A DNA stretch of 64,000 bases. It comes from Luteolibacter sp. GTDB lineage: Bacteria > Verrucomicrobiota > Verrucomicrobiia > Verrucomicrobiales > Akkermansiaceae. The notes below the pieces were generated by a model. That model had not been told where the DNA came from. It did no database searches and saw nothing but the letters and a program-made list of their open reading frames with translations. This document shows positions 48,098-54,523 of this stretch, piece after piece. The first letter of the stretch is position 1, and each line of letters opens with the position of its first letter. The position numbers and the translations under genes were made by a program. The stretch is from positions 18,304-82,303 of the forward strand of contig JBDWAR010000023.1 of assembly GCA_039978775.1 (NCBI GenBank). The letters run 5' to 3'.

Positions 48098-48871
48098 ATG
48101 TCATACGGAAAAATTGCGGCGGTCGCCGCCACGGGTTTGTTCAGCTTCGGAGCAGTTCACGCAGAGGAAACGAAAGATGGACGCGCCCTTGTGATGGAAT
48201 CCATCGAGGCTCATGGCGGCACGGAGAAATGGTACAACAGCGGCCAACTCCAGTTCCGCTGGACCTATCACATGACCGACAAAGGAGCGAATGCAGTGGT
48301 CGATACCGTGCAGACTGTCGATCCGAAGAGCCTTGCCGTGAAGCACGAGGTGGTCGGCAAGGACATCACCTTCGGCATGAATGGCGGGATCGATTGGATC
48401 CGCCCGAAAGATGCGGAGTTCATGCCGCCCCCGCGCTTCTGGGCACTGACCCCGACCTACTTCCTCGGCATTCCTTTCGTCTTCAATGACGAGAACGCGA
48501 ACTTCGCAATCCTGCCGGACACCCTGGCCTTCGAGGGCAAGGATTACACCCAGGTGAAGGTCACCTACAACCCGGAAGCCGGCGACACTCCGGATGACTA
48601 CTACGTCCTCCTCATCGATCCTGAAACGAAAGTCACACGCGGCGCCTACTACACCGTCACCAGCGACCTGCTCGGCAATGACAAGGTCGGCCCGCCGAAA
48701 TTCATCACCCTCGACGACCTGCAAGACATCGGCGGCGTGAAACTCTCCGGTGCCCATCGGACGTTCGCGATCACAGATGATGGCAAGATCGGCGAGCAAA
48801 TGCGCTTCACCGAAGTCAGCGGAGTGAAATGGCTGCCAGCAGGCACCGTCGATCTCGCCGTGCCTGAGTGA
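48098..48871 (+). CDS. Exported protein, DUF6503-like
   Basis: True start at ATG 48098 inside ORF 47321..48871; signal peptide, SIEAHGG, FLGIPF, GDTPDDYY.L.ID. Confidence 0.7.
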   Translation: MSYGKIAAVAATGLFSFGAVHAEETKDGRALVMESIEAHGGTEKWYNSGQLQFRWTYHMTDKGANAVVDTVQTVDPKSLAVKHEVVGKDITFGMNGGIDWIRPKDAEFMPPPRFWALTPTYFLGIPFVFNDENANFAILPDTLAFEGKDYTQVKVTYNPEAGDTPDDYYVLLIDPETKVTRGAYYTVTSDLLGNDKVGPPKFITLDDLQDIGGVKLSGAHRTFAITDDGKIGEQMRFTEVSGVKWLPAGTVDLAVPE

Positions 48872-48897: not shown

Positions 48898-49126
48898 ATC
48901 CGCGTCCATCCGTGGTTCAGAAAATTTCAACCGCAGCAGATGGACGCAGAATGAAGAGATGGTATCCGAATGAGATTAAATCAAAAATTGCCCTGAAATT
49001 CGGGGGAGAAAAATCAAACTCCATCCTCTTTATCTTCGTTAATCCCGTCCATCTGCGGTTAAAATATCTTCTCTTTATTCCGTCCACCTGGGCCCCGTAG
49101 CCTCGGCGTAGGGGGCATCTGCGGTT
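48898..49126. repeat. Nested inverted-repeat element (CGTCCATCTGCGGTT family) with inserted palindrome
   Basis: Four related copies at 48898-48917 (+), 48929-48950 (-), 49042-49060 (+) and 49078-49126 (+, interrupted by CCCCGTAGCCTCGGCGTAGGGG). Confidence 0.75.
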
Positions 49127-49188
49127 CCTCACACCCCCCTGACACCAATAATCTTGCGGAATGTTTCTATATATAGGAGAAACTACGT

Positions 49189-51075
49189 GTGAATTCACGT
49201 CCCACCATTTTCGTATCGACGGTTAGCAAGGAACTCCGGAGTGCCAGGCAGCTTGTCGCCAACACCCTCACCTTCCTCGGTTACGAGCCTGTGTGGCAGG
49301 ATATTTTCGGCACCGAAAGCGGCGATCTTCGGGAGATGCTGCGCACACGCGTCGATGGCTGCAAGGGCGTGGTGCAACTCGTTGGCTATGCCTATGGCGC
49401 GGAGCCGCCGGATATGGATACGGAGTTCGGCCGGGTGAGTTACACCCAATATGAGGCTCTCTACGCGCGCCAACAGGGGATCAAGGTCTGGTACCTTTTC
49501 ATCGATGAGAAATTCCCCGCCGATGAGTTCGAGCCCGAGCCCGAGGAGCACCGCCAGCTTCAGGAAACCTACCGCAACAGCCTGAAGGCGGACACCCACC
49601 TCTTCCACGAGCTCACCACCAATGCTGCCCTCGAAGCTGGGGTGCTAAAACTCCGCGACGACCTTACCGTCCTGCGCCGCAATGCCAAACGCTGGGCGAT
49701 CGCCATTGTCGGCATCTTGCTCATCATCACCGGCCTGTCCGTTTGGCTCATCAAGGGTCAGGATGAAACGAAGAAATCCGTGGGCGATACCAAGAAAGCC
49801 GTCGATCAAACCAAACAGTCTGTCGATGACACCAAACGCTCCGTCGATGACGTCGCCGCAGAGGTGAAGAAGAGCAATGAGACCCTCGAGAAGATCGCCG
49901 ACCGCTTCGAATCGCTCGCCTCAAATGGCAGGCTCATCCCGGATCCCAAGACCCCCGAGGAGCACTACCACAATGCCCGCATGCACGAGCTCGGTGGCAA
50001 TTTCTCCGCCGCCCGCAAGGAATACTCTGAGTATCTCTCCGCTAATCTCGAAGCGCTCGATCCATGGTTGAGCTACTCGGAAATGCTCAAAGCCTCCGAA
50101 GGCCGCGCCGGTGCCATCGACACCCTACGTTACTTTGGCAACAAGCTCGAACCTCAGACAGTTTCCTACCGCACCGCTCTCGCCCTACTGGAGGACGATG
50201 TCGCCCGCCTCCAGAGCCTTGAGAAACTCGCTGCGGAAAATCCCGATTACGGCCCGCTCGCCTACCTCATCAGCCGGGAGTATTCCGATGCCCGCCGTGG
50301 CGAGCAGTCACTTGCCGAAAAACGCTCGGAAAAGGAATGGCTGGAGAAATTCCGCGAGGCGGAAAAGGCCGGCAATTTCCTGCGCTATTTCATCGATAAA
50401 AAAGAAGCGCAGAAATGGGCGGAGACTGCCGAGGCCGCATGGGCGCAGATGGATTCCACCCTCGATAGGGTGTTGGAAAATCCCGTCACCGTCACTGCCC
50501 AGCAGAGCAATGCCGGATGGGCTGCGGTATTCAGTATCACCGATCGCCGGGCGAAGGAACTCTTCTACCGGCTCGATGGCAAAGGCGAGTTTATATCCAC
50601 AGGCCACCTGCCTGCAAAGAGTCCAGATACCGGTCTACCCCTGATCAATCCCCACGTCCCGTTGCCGAACCTTGCGGCGGGCACCCATTGGATCGAGGTG
50701 AAATACACCGACGACAACGACACCATGAATGGTCCCTATACGCTCCAGTTCTCCACCTCCAGTGAGCAGCTCGCCCAAGGGAAAATGATGCTCAATGCCA
50801 TTGCCGGATCATGGCTCTCCTTTGGCGATGCGAACAACCAGACCCTGCTCTACTTCACCATGCTGATGTCCTACCGCCCGGTCATCGCGGAGATCCACTA
50901 CTCCCTGGATAACGATGCCCTCGACAAGAGGTTTAAGTTCAAGCCCAGCGACACCATGTTCGAAGTCGGCGACGACCTCTACCTCTCCGTCCCCGGCAAC
51001 ACCCGCTTCGCCATGGTCCAAGTGATTTTTAAAGATGGCACCAAATCTGCCGTGCAGAAGGTGGTGAGGAACTAG
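49189..51075 (+). CDS. DUF4062 (TIR/NDT-like) domain - TM - coiled coil - TPR-like - beta-rich C-terminal protein
   Basis: IFVSTVSKELRSAR, LVGYAYG, SYTQYEALYA; TM WAIAIVGILLIITGLSVWLI; heptads VGDTKKA VDQTKQS VDDTKRS; EEHYHNARMHELGGNFSAARKEY. Confidence 0.78.
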   Translation: MNSRPTIFVSTVSKELRSARQLVANTLTFLGYEPVWQDIFGTESGDLREMLRTRVDGCKGVVQLVGYAYGAEPPDMDTEFGRVSYTQYEALYARQQGIKVWYLFIDEKFPADEFEPEPEEHRQLQETYRNSLKADTHLFHELTTNAALEAGVLKLRDDLTVLRRNAKRWAIAIVGILLIITGLSVWLIKGQDETKKSVGDTKKAVDQTKQSVDDTKRSVDDVAAEVKKSNETLEKIADRFESLASNGRLIPDPKTPEEHYHNARMHELGGNFSAARKEYSEYLSANLEALDPWLSYSEMLKASEGRAGAIDTLRYFGNKLEPQTVSYRTALALLEDDVARLQSLEKLAAENPDYGPLAYLISREYSDARRGEQSLAEKRSEKEWLEKFREAEKAGNFLRYFIDKKEAQKWAETAEAAWAQMDSTLDRVLENPVTVTAQQSNAGWAAVFSITDRRAKELFYRLDGKGEFISTGHLPAKSPDTGLPLINPHVPLPNLAAGTHWIEVKYTDDNDTMNGPYTLQFSTSSEQLAQGKMMLNAIAGSWLSFGDANNQTLLYFTMLMSYRPVIAEIHYSLDNDALDKRFKFKPSDTMFEVGDDLYLSVPGNTRFAMVQVIFKDGTKSAVQKVVRN

Positions 51076-51247: not shown

Positions 51248-51505
51248 ATGTCTCAGACCGCAGTGATCCATGCTCGAATCGATCCAGCCACCAAAGCAGC
51301 AACGGAGCGCATACTGGAAGCCATCGGATTGACACCAACTGAGGCGATCCGGTTACTTTATCGCCAGATCGCCATGCGCGGCGAGTTTCCAGTTGAGCTA
51401 AGAACACCGAATGCCGAAACGGCTAGAGCGCTCTCCATGGCAGACAATGGTGAAGATGTTGAGACGTTTGAGAGCACTGAAGAACTCTACGCATCTTGGG
51501 AGTAA
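51248..51505 (+). CDS. dinJ: RelB/DinJ family antitoxin
   Basis: VIHARIDPATK, GLTPTEAIRLLY.QI...FP.EL..PNAET..A. Confidence 0.9.
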   Translation: MSQTAVIHARIDPATKAATERILEAIGLTPTEAIRLLYRQIAMRGEFPVELRTPNAETARALSMADNGEDVETFESTEELYASWE

Positions 51506-51768
51506 TGAGAGTCGTTCAGCCCGGCTCCTTCAAGAGAGATATTAAGAAGCTGAAGAAACGCGGCAGAGACTTGAACAAGCTAAAAGTCGTTGTGGATCTG
51601 CTCGTAGCTGGTGAGGTTTTACCAGATCGCTGTGTCGATCATGCGCTTTCAGGGAATTGGACGGGATGGCGCGATTGCCATATAGAACCCGACTGGATAC
51701 TGATCTACAAGATGGCGCCGGACATCTTGACGCTCGGGCGGACTGGCACCCATTCAGACCTATTCTGA
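51505..51768 (+). CDS. yafQ: YafQ family toxin (RelE/ParE superfamily)
   Basis: FKRDIKK, DHALSGNW.G.RDCHIEPDWILIY, RTGTHSDLF; TAATG overlap with the antitoxin. Confidence 0.93.
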   Translation: MRVVQPGSFKRDIKKLKKRGRDLNKLKVVVDLLVAGEVLPDRCVDHALSGNWTGWRDCHIEPDWILIYKMAPDILTLGRTGTHSDLF

Positions 51769-52718: not shown

Positions 52719-52928
52719 TTATCCGGTGAAGGGGGTGGCATCCTTCTTTCTGGCCCAGCGTTCCTCGGCGCTGGGTGGGTTTTTCATGAGGGGGGCGAAG
52801 TGTGCCTCGACGATGCGTGGATCGATGAATTGAGGACGGTGGGGTGCCGGGCCTTCGGGGCAGGCGGGCAAGTCAAAGTCGGCCGGATATGACGGCTGTG
52901 ATGCGTTCGGCGGCGTTTTCTCCTCCAT
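52719..52928 (-). CDS. Small hypothetical partner of the nucleotidyltransferase
   Basis: 69 aa Pro-rich ORF overlapping the NTase 3' end and ending EERWARKKDATPFTG. Confidence 0.5.
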   Translation of the reverse strand: MEEKTPPNASQPSYPADFDLPACPEGPAPHRPQFIDPRIVEAHFAPLMKNPPSAEERWARKKDATPFTG

Positions 52929-53325
52929 GCTTCATGACGATAGCGGAAAAATCGGGATCGTCGAGGGAGAGCTTGTGATGCTTCACGAGGGCGAAAACAT
53001 CCGACCAGTCCTGGGCGGAGTTTTGGCGGGAGGGTTGGTTGATGGCGTGGAGCTTGAGCGCGATCATCGAGAGGGCGTCAGGAGTTGCGATGGGGTTGGA
53101 GTCAATTTTGTGACTCTCGAGATTCCGGAAAACCTCGTCGTCCACGATCATCAGGTCGATGGGAGGCAGGGGGAAGGTCGGATGGGCTTCAAACTGGAGA
53201 AAGTTTCCGGTTTCCGCGTAGGGGCTGTAGCGGAGCTGGGAGAGTTCGCGTTTCCAATCCTCCGTGGCGGATCGAGGGATGAGGAGGTCGAGATCGTAGG
53301 TGGCGCGCGGGTGTCCGAGGGCGCT
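52873..53325 (-). pseudogene. 5'-truncated nucleotidyltransferase (AbiEii/DUF6036-like)
   Basis: ALGHPRATYDLDLLI, PIDLM, LSMIALKLHA...R...QDWSD; no plausible start codon before the motif, which abuts the KamA stop. Confidence 0.65.
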
Positions 53326-53329
53326 GCAA

Positions 53330-54523
53330 CTACTGGCCGCAGAGGGCTTTTTCTTGGAGGACTTGCATTTCCTCTGTGGAGATCGGGGTCGGGTTTGGGT
53401 AGTCGAAGATTTCCCCATCGTAGTTGCGGAGGGTGATTTTTGTTGGGTCAGAATCGACGACGTAGTTGGGATTGACCGGGATTTTTCCGCCGCCGCCGGG
53501 GCCATCGATGACGAACTGGGGGATGGCGTAGCCGGTGGTGTGGCCGCGGAGTTGCTCAATGATATTGACACCTTCCGAGACGGCGGTGCGGAGGTGGGAG
53601 GAGCCGGTGATGAGGTCGCACTGATAGAGGTAATACGGGCGCACGCGGCACATGAGGAGCTTGTGAACCAGGGCTTTCTGGACTTCCGGGGAGTCGTTGA
53701 CGCCGCGCAGAAGGACGGATTGGTTGCCGAGCGGGATGCCGGCCTCGGCGAGGCGGACGAGGCCATCTCGCACTTCGCTGGTGAGTTCCTTGGGATGGTT
53801 GCTGTGGATGGAGATGAAAAGCGGGTGGTGCTTTTTCAGCATGGCGCAGAGCTCCGGAGTGATGCGCTGGGGCAGGAAAATCGGGATGCGCGATCCGATG
53901 CGCACGAACTGGATGTGCGGGATCGAGCGGAGGCGGGTGAGGATTCTATCCAGCTTCGCGTCGGAGAACAGGAGGGGATCGCCGCCGGAGAGGAGGACGT
54001 CGCGCACTTCCGTGTGTTCTTCGAGGTATTTGAAAGCGGCTTCCCATTGGGTCTCGAGCTGTTGCTCGCCCACACCGGAGACCACGCGCGAGCGGGTGCA
54101 GTAGCGGCAGTAGGAAGCGCAGCGGTCGGTGACGAGGAAAAGGACACGGTCCGGGTAGCGGTGGACGAGGCCGGGGACTGGCATGTGGGAGTCTTCTCCA
54201 CAGGGATCGGAGAGCTCTTCGGGGGCGGTCCAACCTTCCTCGATGCGAGGAATGACCTGGCGGCGGATCGGGCAGTTCGGGTCGTCCTTGTCGATGAGGT
54301 TGAAGAAATGCGGGGTGATCGCCATCGCCAGCTTGGTGCCGGCGAGGAGGACGCCGGCGCGTTCTTCATCAGAGAGGTTGATGCGGGCTTCGAGGTCGGC
54401 GAGCGAGTCGATGCGGTTGCGCAGCTGCCAGGTGTGGCTGTCCCATTTTTCCATGGCGGAGTCCGGCCAGTAACCGGGGGCGTGGGAGCGGAAAGTGGTG
54501 TCGAGGTCGATTGATGAGGTCAT
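53330..54523 (-). CDS. KamA family radical SAM protein (lysine 2,3-aminomutase-like)
   Basis: DPCGED, HRYPDRVL, CASYCRYCTR, LSGGDPL, RIGSRIP, NQSVLLRGVND, PYYLYQCD, DGPGGGGKIP. Confidence 0.93.
   Translation of the reverse strand: MTSSIDLDTTFRSHAPGYWPDSAMEKWDSHTWQLRNRIDSLADLEARINLSDEERAGVLLAGTKLAMAITPHFFNLIDKDDPNCPIRRQVIPRIEEGWTAPEELSDPCGEDSHMPVPGLVHRYPDRVLFLVTDRCASYCRYCTRSRVVSGVGEQQLETQWEAAFKYLEEHTEVRDVLLSGGDPLLFSDAKLDRILTRLRSIPHIQFVRIGSRIPIFLPQRITPELCAMLKKHHPLFISIHSNHPKELTSEVRDGLVRLAEAGIPLGNQSVLLRGVNDSPEVQKALVHKLLMCRVRPYYLYQCDLITGSSHLRTAVSEGVNIIEQLRGHTTGYAIPQFVIDGPGGGGKIPVNPNYVVDSDPTKITLRNYDGEIFDYPNPTPISTEEMQVLQEKALCGQ

Follow-up and report, generated by a model that had tools for sequence, protein, structure and literature searches.

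The stretch of DNA analysed here, called the window throughout, comprises 64,000 nucleotides of a Luteolibacter sp. genome (GenBank assembly GCA_039978775.1, contig JBDWAR010000023.1, positions 18,304 to 82,303), and one of its genes, encoding a protein of 628 amino acid residues (aa), is the subject of this report. The protein consists of a cytoplasmic head of the DUF4062 family (NIR domain), a helical linker, a single transmembrane (TM) helix, a stalk of heptad repeats and a C-terminal module (the C-module), in which a TPR-like helical array precedes two beta-sandwich domains (Table 1). The open reading frame (ORF) starts with a GTG codon preceded by a Shine-Dalgarno-like sequence, and the N-terminus VNSRPTIF is common to the protein and its close orthologues. 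Full-length relatives occur across orders with 63-86% identity. DUF4062 is the sole curated domain that Pfam recognizes in the protein; no P-loop NTPase was detected with Pfam or NCBIfam, and there is no N-terminal signal peptide. NCBIfam and PADLOC gave only weak coiled-coil matches around aa 190-290, while a PDB sequence search with the whole protein gave nothing. A named family for the entire protein or for its C-module was considered and rejected, as the matches in PADLOC, NCBIfam, PDB and Foldseek (PDB, BFVD) were weak or generic.

Table 1. The gene, the parts of its product and the surrounding features in the window (positions counted from the first letter of the window).
Feature	Position	Strand	Basis
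Secreted DUF6503-like protein, left border of variable slot, outside the system	48098-48871	+	Pfam; synteny in relatives
Dispersed short repeat CGTCCATCYGYGGTT, upstream intergenic	48898-49126	.	27 genome matches
Shine-Dalgarno-like AGGAG, 9 nt 5' of GTG	49175-49179	+	Sequence read
Whole gene, 628-aa NIR(DUF4062)-TM-stalk-TPR-2x beta-sandwich protein	49189-51075	+	ORF; homologues >1297
Cytoplasmic DUF4062/NIR TIR-like domain, aa 1-110 (Pfam match aa 7-93)	49189-49518	+	Pfam, AF2, Foldseek
Glu89 codon GAG, catalytic-type Glu of SYTQYE motif	49453-49455	+	Invariant in two alignments
Cytoplasmic helical linker, aa 111-168	49519-49692	+	AF2 helices; conserved residues
Single TM helix, aa 169-188	49693-49752	+	Hydropathy; same place in 42 N-module relatives
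Periplasmic heptad-repeat stalk, including repeats 49768-49851	49753-49884	+	TRF; stalk lengths in 121 orthologues
Periplasmic TPR-like helical array, aa 233-430	49885-50478	+	AF2; weak Foldseek; invariant columns
First beta-sandwich (FN3/Ig-like) domain, aa 433-522	50485-50754	+	AF2, Foldseek
Second beta-sandwich domain, aa 544-626, after helix aa 523-537	50818-51066	+	AF2, Foldseek
RelB/YafQ type II toxin-antitoxin pair, variable neighbour	51248-51768	+	Pfam E=2.9e-14, 1.3e-32
Lysine 2,3-aminomutase-like radical SAM gene (kamA), right border of variable slot	53330-54523	-	Pfam

The N-terminus is a DUF4062/TIR-like domain with a catalytic-type glutamate. The Pfam match (PF13271) scored 41.8 bits against a cut-off of 24.7 (E=1.3e-10). 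In the alignment of 42 proteins sharing the N-terminal module (N-module), residues S84, Y85, T86, Q87, E89 and W36 were invariant and F8 and Q37 nearly so, and a second alignment of 55 sequences again showed S84, T86, Q87 and E89 to be invariant. The head residues F8, W36/Q37 and S84-E89 have their counterparts in Evangelion, whose motifs are termed aromatic, Q/W/E and acidic-SYT/Glu. The AlphaFold2 (AF2) model of aa 1-205 (pLDDT 83.8) displays the alternating strands and helices of a beta-alpha fold, and its best Foldseek matches in the PDB were the TIR domains of SARM1, SPARTA TIR-APAZ, AbTir and RPP1, with E down to 8e-6 and a TIR-normalised TM-score of up to 0.62. A profile search of the PDB with the N-module alignment matched only the TPR tails of relatives.

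DUF4062 domains act as NADases in the phage defence systems Avs2, Vulcan, Vesta, Swarozyc and Evangelion; NAD+ depletion was observed for PsAvs2, Vulcan, Vesta, KpSwz, Eva01 and the human TEP1, and PsAvs2, Vulcan, Vesta and TEP1 depend on the equivalent glutamate both for the NADase reaction and for defence (2026 preprints 10.64898/2026.05.01.722283, 10.64898/2026.06.25.731849 and 10.64898/2026.09.04.749371). The preliminary description of this DNA had proposed a nucleotide- or NAD-cleaving effector, which these preprints establish for other members of the family. By homology, and given the invariant catalytic motif, the NIR head of the 628-aa protein is likely to be enzymatically active and to hydrolyse NAD+ as well, a reaction that in this family yields ADP-ribose and nicotinamide.

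Beyond the head, the AF2 model continues with a helix at aa 119-135 and then one unbroken helix, aa 145-204, which contains the TM segment; the linker residues E117, Q125, Y128 and L162 do not vary across the N-module family. The mean Kyte-Doolittle hydropathy of the TM segment is 2.68 over 19 aa (aa 170-188), and the segment is flanked by the basic RRNAKRW on the N-side and by WLIKGQ on the C-side. It is kept at the same place in the 42 N-module relatives, though its sequence drifts.

Directly after the TM helix, four 7-aa units (TKKSVGD, TKKAVDQ, TKQSVDD and TKRSVDD) are encoded by 21-nt repeats at 49768-49851, and TRF reports a period of 21 at 49799-49851. The length of the stalk, taken as the distance from the TM segment to the YHNAR motif of the C-module, was compared in 121 full-length orthologues. 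It corresponded to whole heptads in 110 of them, with 35 aa in 23 orthologues, 42 aa in 26, 49 aa in 40, 56 aa in eight, 63 aa in five and 70 aa in eight, and took other values in 11. The longest stalk is that of the 628-aa protein itself, owing to extra TK-x-SVDD units. Since the stalk varies in whole heptads, its helical register is preserved, as expected of a coiled coil that needs to stay in phase with the parts it connects. In KpSwz, helical 'stems' lock the TIR-like domains in an auto-inhibited dimer (same 2026 preprints); together with the modelled helix across the membrane, this suggests that the sensor and NIR domains may be mechanically linked through the stalk. The heptad steps of the stalk also open the signalling mechanism to simple genetics, through deletions of 7 versus non-7 residues.

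The C-module (aa 232-628) was modelled with an alignment of 72 sequences (pLDDT 93.2, pTM 0.78) as a helical-repeat array followed by two beta-sandwiches with a helix between them, at the borders given in Table 1. Foldseek returned only generic fold matches in the PDB and BFVD (best E about 1e-4, query-normalised TM-score at most 0.3): MamA, PilF and consensus TPR (CTPR), all weak, on the TPR side, and the interferon-gamma receptor, SiiE and phage tail-tip proteins on the side of tandem FN3/Ig domains. Pfam assigned no family to this region, neither in the 628-aa protein nor in any listed relative, and this includes Pfam TPR and CHASE2. The motifs P-x-x-P-E-E-x-Y-H-N-A-R and L-K-x-Q-E-G-R-A-G-A in the TPR-like array are conserved across phyla. 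The region thus defines a new sensor module, about 395 aa long, that lacks a Pfam family and closely resembles no solved structure.

In other proteins, namely fusions with caspase, CsgG/LpoB/FlgO-like and DUF1353 lipoprotein domains, the C-module stands behind signal peptides or lipoboxes, whereas exactly one TM segment precedes it in the sampled kinase, HEPN, TIR and cyclase forms. This evidence is independent, and on this computational ground the C-module is placed in the periplasm. The architecture and topology of the 628-aa protein are therefore well supported by computation. They agree with the preliminary description, which had read from the letters a DUF4062 head with the glutamate of SYTQYE, a TM segment at about aa 169-188, three or four 7-aa repeats of 21-nt periodicity (four units are present), TPR-like helices and a beta-rich C-terminus (both found in the AF2 model, with no Pfam TPR match), an extracytoplasmic location of the latter, and the lack of an NTPase domain and of an N-terminal signal peptide.

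Both halves of the protein recur separately. When 1.84 billion representatives were searched exhaustively with phmmer, 2246 matches were obtained, which fall into three groups: full-length relatives; proteins that have in common only aa 2 to about 220, with 50-62% identity and the TM segment always at the same place; and proteins that have in common only aa 195-627, approximately, with 30-48% identity and the C-module always at their C-terminus. Pfam partners were tallied in 42 proteins sampled for each half. The tails behind the NIR+TM module comprised TPR_12/TPR_10 in 25 of the 42, and also pentapeptide repeats, Sel1, DUF4384 and DUF7017. The partners of the C-module included Ser/Thr kinase (13), HEPN_STY4199 (nine), caspase (six), TIR_2 (three) and a guanylate-cyclase-type domain (one), besides LRR, CsgG/LpoB/FlgO-like and DUF1353 lipoprotein domains, and its commonest N-terminus is a non-enzymatic head of 110-150 aa that contains two or three TM helices. 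With at least eight kinds of N-terminal partner, the C-module is found in Verrucomicrobiota, Alphaproteobacteria and Gammaproteobacteria, in about 280 genomes or more; as it is joined to so many kinds of partner, the discovery of its ligand would explain many proteins at once. Homologues with exchanged effectors, for which caspase and TIR had been suggested beforehand, thus exist for kinase, HEPN, TIR and cyclase behind one TM helix. The caspase was rejected as a swapped cytoplasmic effector: the six fusions have no internal TM segment and those with complete N-termini start with a signal peptide, so that the caspase is periplasmic and the fusion lies on one side of the membrane.

A maximum likelihood tree of the C-module, built from 95 representatives, shows at least 24 changes of N-terminal partner, and at least three joinings of NIR to the module. 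The sister of the clade of the 628-aa protein is P0127, a canonical TIR_2-TM protein, and the multi-TM protein P0124 is nested inside this clade. Some Chthoniobacterales carry 5-7 NIR+TM paralogues per genome. In one with seven copies (G448, contig C1, 10175-13383), two such paralogues lie about 2 kb apart, which suggests tandem duplication followed by diversification of the tails. The Luteolibacter genome itself (G000) has a second membrane-anchored DUF4062 gene on contig C10 (about 67827-71171, locus L007), whose 697-aa product P0386 is composed of a NIR domain 46% identical to that of the 628-aa protein, one TM segment, a coiled coil and TPR_12/TPR_10/NPHP3-type repeats. In Halieaceae/Congregibacter and one Verrucomicrobiia metagenome-assembled genome (loci L085, L086, L088 and L090), a protein of about 250-260 aa (cluster c23), resembling an ion-transport membrane protein going by its N-terminal sequence, directly adjoins a multi-TM sensor gene.

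With somewhat better than even confidence, we regard the protein as a type II (N-in) single-pass inner-membrane receptor with a cytoplasmic NIR NADase domain and a periplasmic sensor, whose trigger, activation and role we infer. Its most likely function would be that of an outside-in receptor, in which a periplasmic event leads to NAD+ hydrolysis and further to growth arrest or death. This view is favoured because the effector family is tied to defence, HEPN and TIR proteins share the same sensor across the membrane, the gene is accessory, and the paralogue families are receptor-like. The stalk would keep the sensor module, which is rigid, at a distance of about 5-10 nm from the membrane, where the module may bind, or lose, a conserved envelope-side ligand; phage adsorption or penetration, cell-wall damage and attack by competitors are candidate events. 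The change in ligand state would travel along the register-sensitive helical stalk and rearrange or cluster the NIR domains, converting an auto-inhibited pair into an active assembly.

The gene resides in a slot between the DUF6503 gene and kamA, and occupies the same position in close relatives. The slot is variable, because it is empty in one congener (G312), where the two border genes are 209 bp apart, and because in the window it holds further genes: RelB (51248-51505) and YafQ (51496-51768), which are absent from the syntenic locus L001, a gene of the DNA_alkylation family, a 69-aa ORF and an AbiEii-like fragment. The last is a stretch of 148 aa (52873-53319, minus strand) whose similarity to the profile of the AbiEii nucleotidyltransferase toxin is confined to the central part (positions 95-190 of 238, E=4.6e-5); together with the 69-aa ORF beside it (52719-52928, minus strand) it is probably a decayed type IV toxin-antitoxin module. 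The upstream repeat CGTCCATCYGYGGTT has 27 matches with at most one mismatch in the 4.0-Mb genome, against one for the reversed control, and is often paired, like an intergenic element of the REP/MITE type. As this short repeat is dispersed genome-wide, it was rejected as the border of a mobile element.

The full-length form is rare. Among 201 genomes of the phylum sample only this one has it, and about 17 sampled congeners contributed two, the second at 43% identity. Upstream of that second gene (congener G326, L010 1-1194) lies a gene judged by eye to be LanC-like (lanthionine synthetase C-type). In Chthoniobacterales, about seven of the 151 sampled genomes (about 5%) carry the full-length form and 20 carry some NIR+TM member. 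Vertical inheritance as a core gene, suspected from the identity of full-length relatives across orders, was rejected in view of this rarity, the empty slot in G312 and the mixing of partners on the C-module tree. A conjugative Thauera plasmid carries one NIR+TM relative amid a restriction endonuclease, insertion sequence (IS) elements and a HigA/RelE pair.

A conserved partner gene was also sought and none was universal: only about six of 77 loci have a TPR-S/MAP3K_TRAF_bd/guanylate-cyclase gene beside or close to the receptor gene. Genes with TPR-S and MAP3K_TRAF_bd were noted near NIR-TM-sensor genes in L002 (5952-7904, minus strand), L010 (3383-4747, plus strand), L025, L030 and L034. Their full-length products include a guanylate-cyclase-type domain, the 455-aa copy in L010 has no Pfam match, and the arrangement varies by locus. 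Homologues are encoded in the Luteolibacter genome too, not beside the gene (C18:440269-441555 and C15:63231-64814).

The gene is under strong purifying selection. The proportion of nonsynonymous differences (pN) is 0.02-0.05 in the NIR domain and 0.09-0.16 in the sensor; that of synonymous differences (pS, about 0.7) is saturated, so that pN/pS ratios are only rough. Diversifying selection on the sensor was not seen, pN being low in all domains.

A more far-reaching reading, which we put forward tentatively, is that these proteins represent a widespread, undescribed class of outside-in innate immune receptors, in which the conserved periplasmic TPR/FN3-like module would sense envelope-side attack before or during phage genome entry and signal via the register-sensitive coiled-coil stalk and TM helix to interchangeable death effectors (NIR, TIR, HEPN and multi-TM heads). 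Any NIR form that spans the membrane and carries a sensor in the periplasm would mean that NAD+-depletion immunity or NAD-based signalling can be triggered from outside the cytoplasm, by adsorption, penetration or envelope damage, in contrast to the DUF4062/NIR NADase systems of the 2026 preprints, all of which respond to cytoplasmic events. The triggers reported there for Swarozyc, Evangelion and Vulcan are phage proteins or processes inside the cell: the portal, a replication-associated trigger and lambdap79.

Several observations weigh against the outside-in receptor with a role in defence, and above all against a strictly anti-phage role. The sensor is not fast-evolving, with motifs conserved across phyla, so that its ligand is more plausibly conserved, and possibly endogenous, than a variable phage protein. 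Among enzymes, the C-module is most often joined to a Ser/Thr kinase, which is a signalling and not a suicide output. The Chthoniobacterales orthologues are found in two or three conserved contexts among ordinary neighbours (a PKD protein, glyoxalase, DPP-IV, CobW, a sigma factor and Pup ligase). PADLOC matched no defence model on the 628-aa protein beyond the weak coiled-coil matches, and for 132 distinct neighbour proteins from 44 loci it returned about eight mostly generic hits, a rough negative without a control set. No homologue was found in the phage collection, and the idea of phage-borne copies was rejected on this result. The preliminary description had taken the flanking repeat and the toxin-antitoxin pair as signs of a defence islet; the RelB/YafQ pair is real, the slot is variable and two modules of toxin-antitoxin type are present in it, but the repeat occurs throughout the genome, the orthologues lie among ordinary genes and PADLOC hits nearby are few. 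Support for defence from the gene neighbourhood is weak.

The same slow evolution of the sensor, frequent kinase outputs and ordinary neighbours are the reason why non-immune envelope signalling is kept as a sizeable rival and the sensing of bacterial attack as a smaller one. According to the former, which we consider less likely than the receptor reading above, the protein would be an ordinary TM signal transducer responding to an endogenous envelope or nutrient cue. Its NIR domain would tune NAD+ or make signals of the ADP-ribose type that serve stress adaptation or dormancy, alongside the kinase and cyclase receptors that share its sensor. The prevalence of kinases among the enzymes coupled to the C-module, with one cyclase, is consistent with such a transducer, as are the strong purifying selection with sensor motifs conserved across phyla, the conserved synteny among ordinary genes in Chthoniobacterales and the few PADLOC hits. 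It accords less well with the patchy distribution of the gene in about 5% of the sampled Chthoniobacterales genomes and the empty site in a congener, or with the lineage-specific expansions of paralogues with varied sensors in some genomes. Moreover, HEPN and TIR are classic conflict effectors, caspase occurs on the periplasmic side, and all DUF4062 proteins tested to date deplete NAD+ in defence.

Distinctly less probable is a sensor of envelope breach directed at competitors or predators and not at phages, in which damage to peptidoglycan or the outer membrane by effectors of type VI secretion systems (T6SS), lysozymes or bacteriocins would lead to NAD+ depletion and altruistic death or arrest. 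The periplasmic, conserved sensor would suit it; a ruler-like stalk of whole heptads suits a target at a fixed distance, e.g., the cell wall; and the C-module is fused elsewhere to LpoB/CsgG-like envelope lipoprotein domains and periplasmic caspases. Nevertheless, T6SS, immunity or bacteriocin genes did not show up as recurrent neighbours at the orthologous loci, and with generic TPR/FN3 matches only in Foldseek, peptidoglycan binding is purely conjectural.

TIR domains can serve as scaffolds, as in animal Toll-like receptors (TLRs), and the topology and activity are predictions, yet the last rival, in which the hydrophobic segment does not span the membrane or the NIR domain is a non-catalytic scaffold, and there is no TM enzyme-linked receptor, is very improbable given the hydropathy of the segment with its aromatic and basic flanks, its retention in 42 relatives despite sequence drift, the secretion of the C-module in other architectures and the invariance of the catalytic-type glutamate and the surrounding motif.

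Among known systems, the single-gene NIR NADase proteins of phage defence come closest to the proposed receptor. As in Swarozyc (KpSwz), Evangelion (Eva01) and Vulcan, the NIR domain with the catalytic Glu and the F, W/Q and SYT motifs is N-terminal, with a C-terminal sensor or auxiliary region in the same chain, and, as in the KpSwz 'stems', helices directly follow the enzyme domain. Unlike these systems, which are described without a membrane segment, the 628-aa protein has a TM helix, a periplasmic stalk, and a TPR-like array with two beta-sandwiches; the word 'transmembrane' is absent from all three preprints (10.64898/2026.05.01.722283, 10.64898/2026.06.25.731849, 10.64898/2026.09.04.749371), and 'membrane' is absent from two and used once, in another sense, in the third. 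These parts take the place of the partner regions of the known systems, i.e., the portal-sensing C-terminus of KpSwz, Eva AUX, HEAT repeats, the VstB phosphatase or the STAND NTPase, and neither HEAT, STAND nor phosphatase domains were detected in the protein with Pfam, NCBIfam and PADLOC. STAND/Avs proteins (PsAvs2; TEP1/NWD1-type) share its effector domain family, but the protein has no P-loop NTPase, and oligomerisation would have to come from the stalk and sensor.

The TIR_2-TM-sensor proteins P0127, P0211 and P0251, like those with HEPN_STY4199, Pkinase or cyclase in front of the TM segment and sensor, share the layout and size of the 628-aa protein: the enzyme head measures about 130 aa, the TM segment lies near aa 165-185, and a stalk leads to a homologous C-module with 30-48% identity. 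They differ from it in the cytoplasmic output domain, and they have no description in the searchable literature. The same literature yielded no description of the membrane-spanning NIR form, of this periplasmic module or of the heptad-stepped stalk; the preliminary description had named the gene the best candidate for an undescribed system in the window. The general logic of one sensor with exchangeable outputs is already known: extracytoplasmic sensors of the CHASE2 type and similar ones are reportedly shared by kinases, cyclases, caspases and TIR domains (Zhulin et al. 2003; Kaur et al. 2021). Like those receptors, the proteins considered here recombine one extracytoplasmic sensor with many outputs across a membrane helix; unlike them, the sensor is not CHASE2 and belongs to no Pfam family. 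Rows such as TIR+TM+CHASE2 and CASPASE+TM+TPR stand in the supplements of Kaur et al. (2021; PMC8195603), whose authors count DRHyd, their term for DUF4062, among the conflict effectors; 'DRHyd+TM' is absent from these tables.

The likeness to animal TLRs concerns topology only and is an analogy, not membership: a repeat ectodomain, one TM helix and a cytoplasmic TIR-fold domain. TLRs are type I proteins with an N-terminal ectodomain, whereas the 628-aa protein has a cytoplasmic N-terminus; their TIR domains act as scaffolds, NIR domains as NADases; and the ectodomains, LRR versus TPR/FN3-like, are not homologous. If the reading as outside-in immune receptors holds, such proteins would be a prokaryotic counterpart of the Toll-like receptor topology with an enzymatic, TIR-like output.

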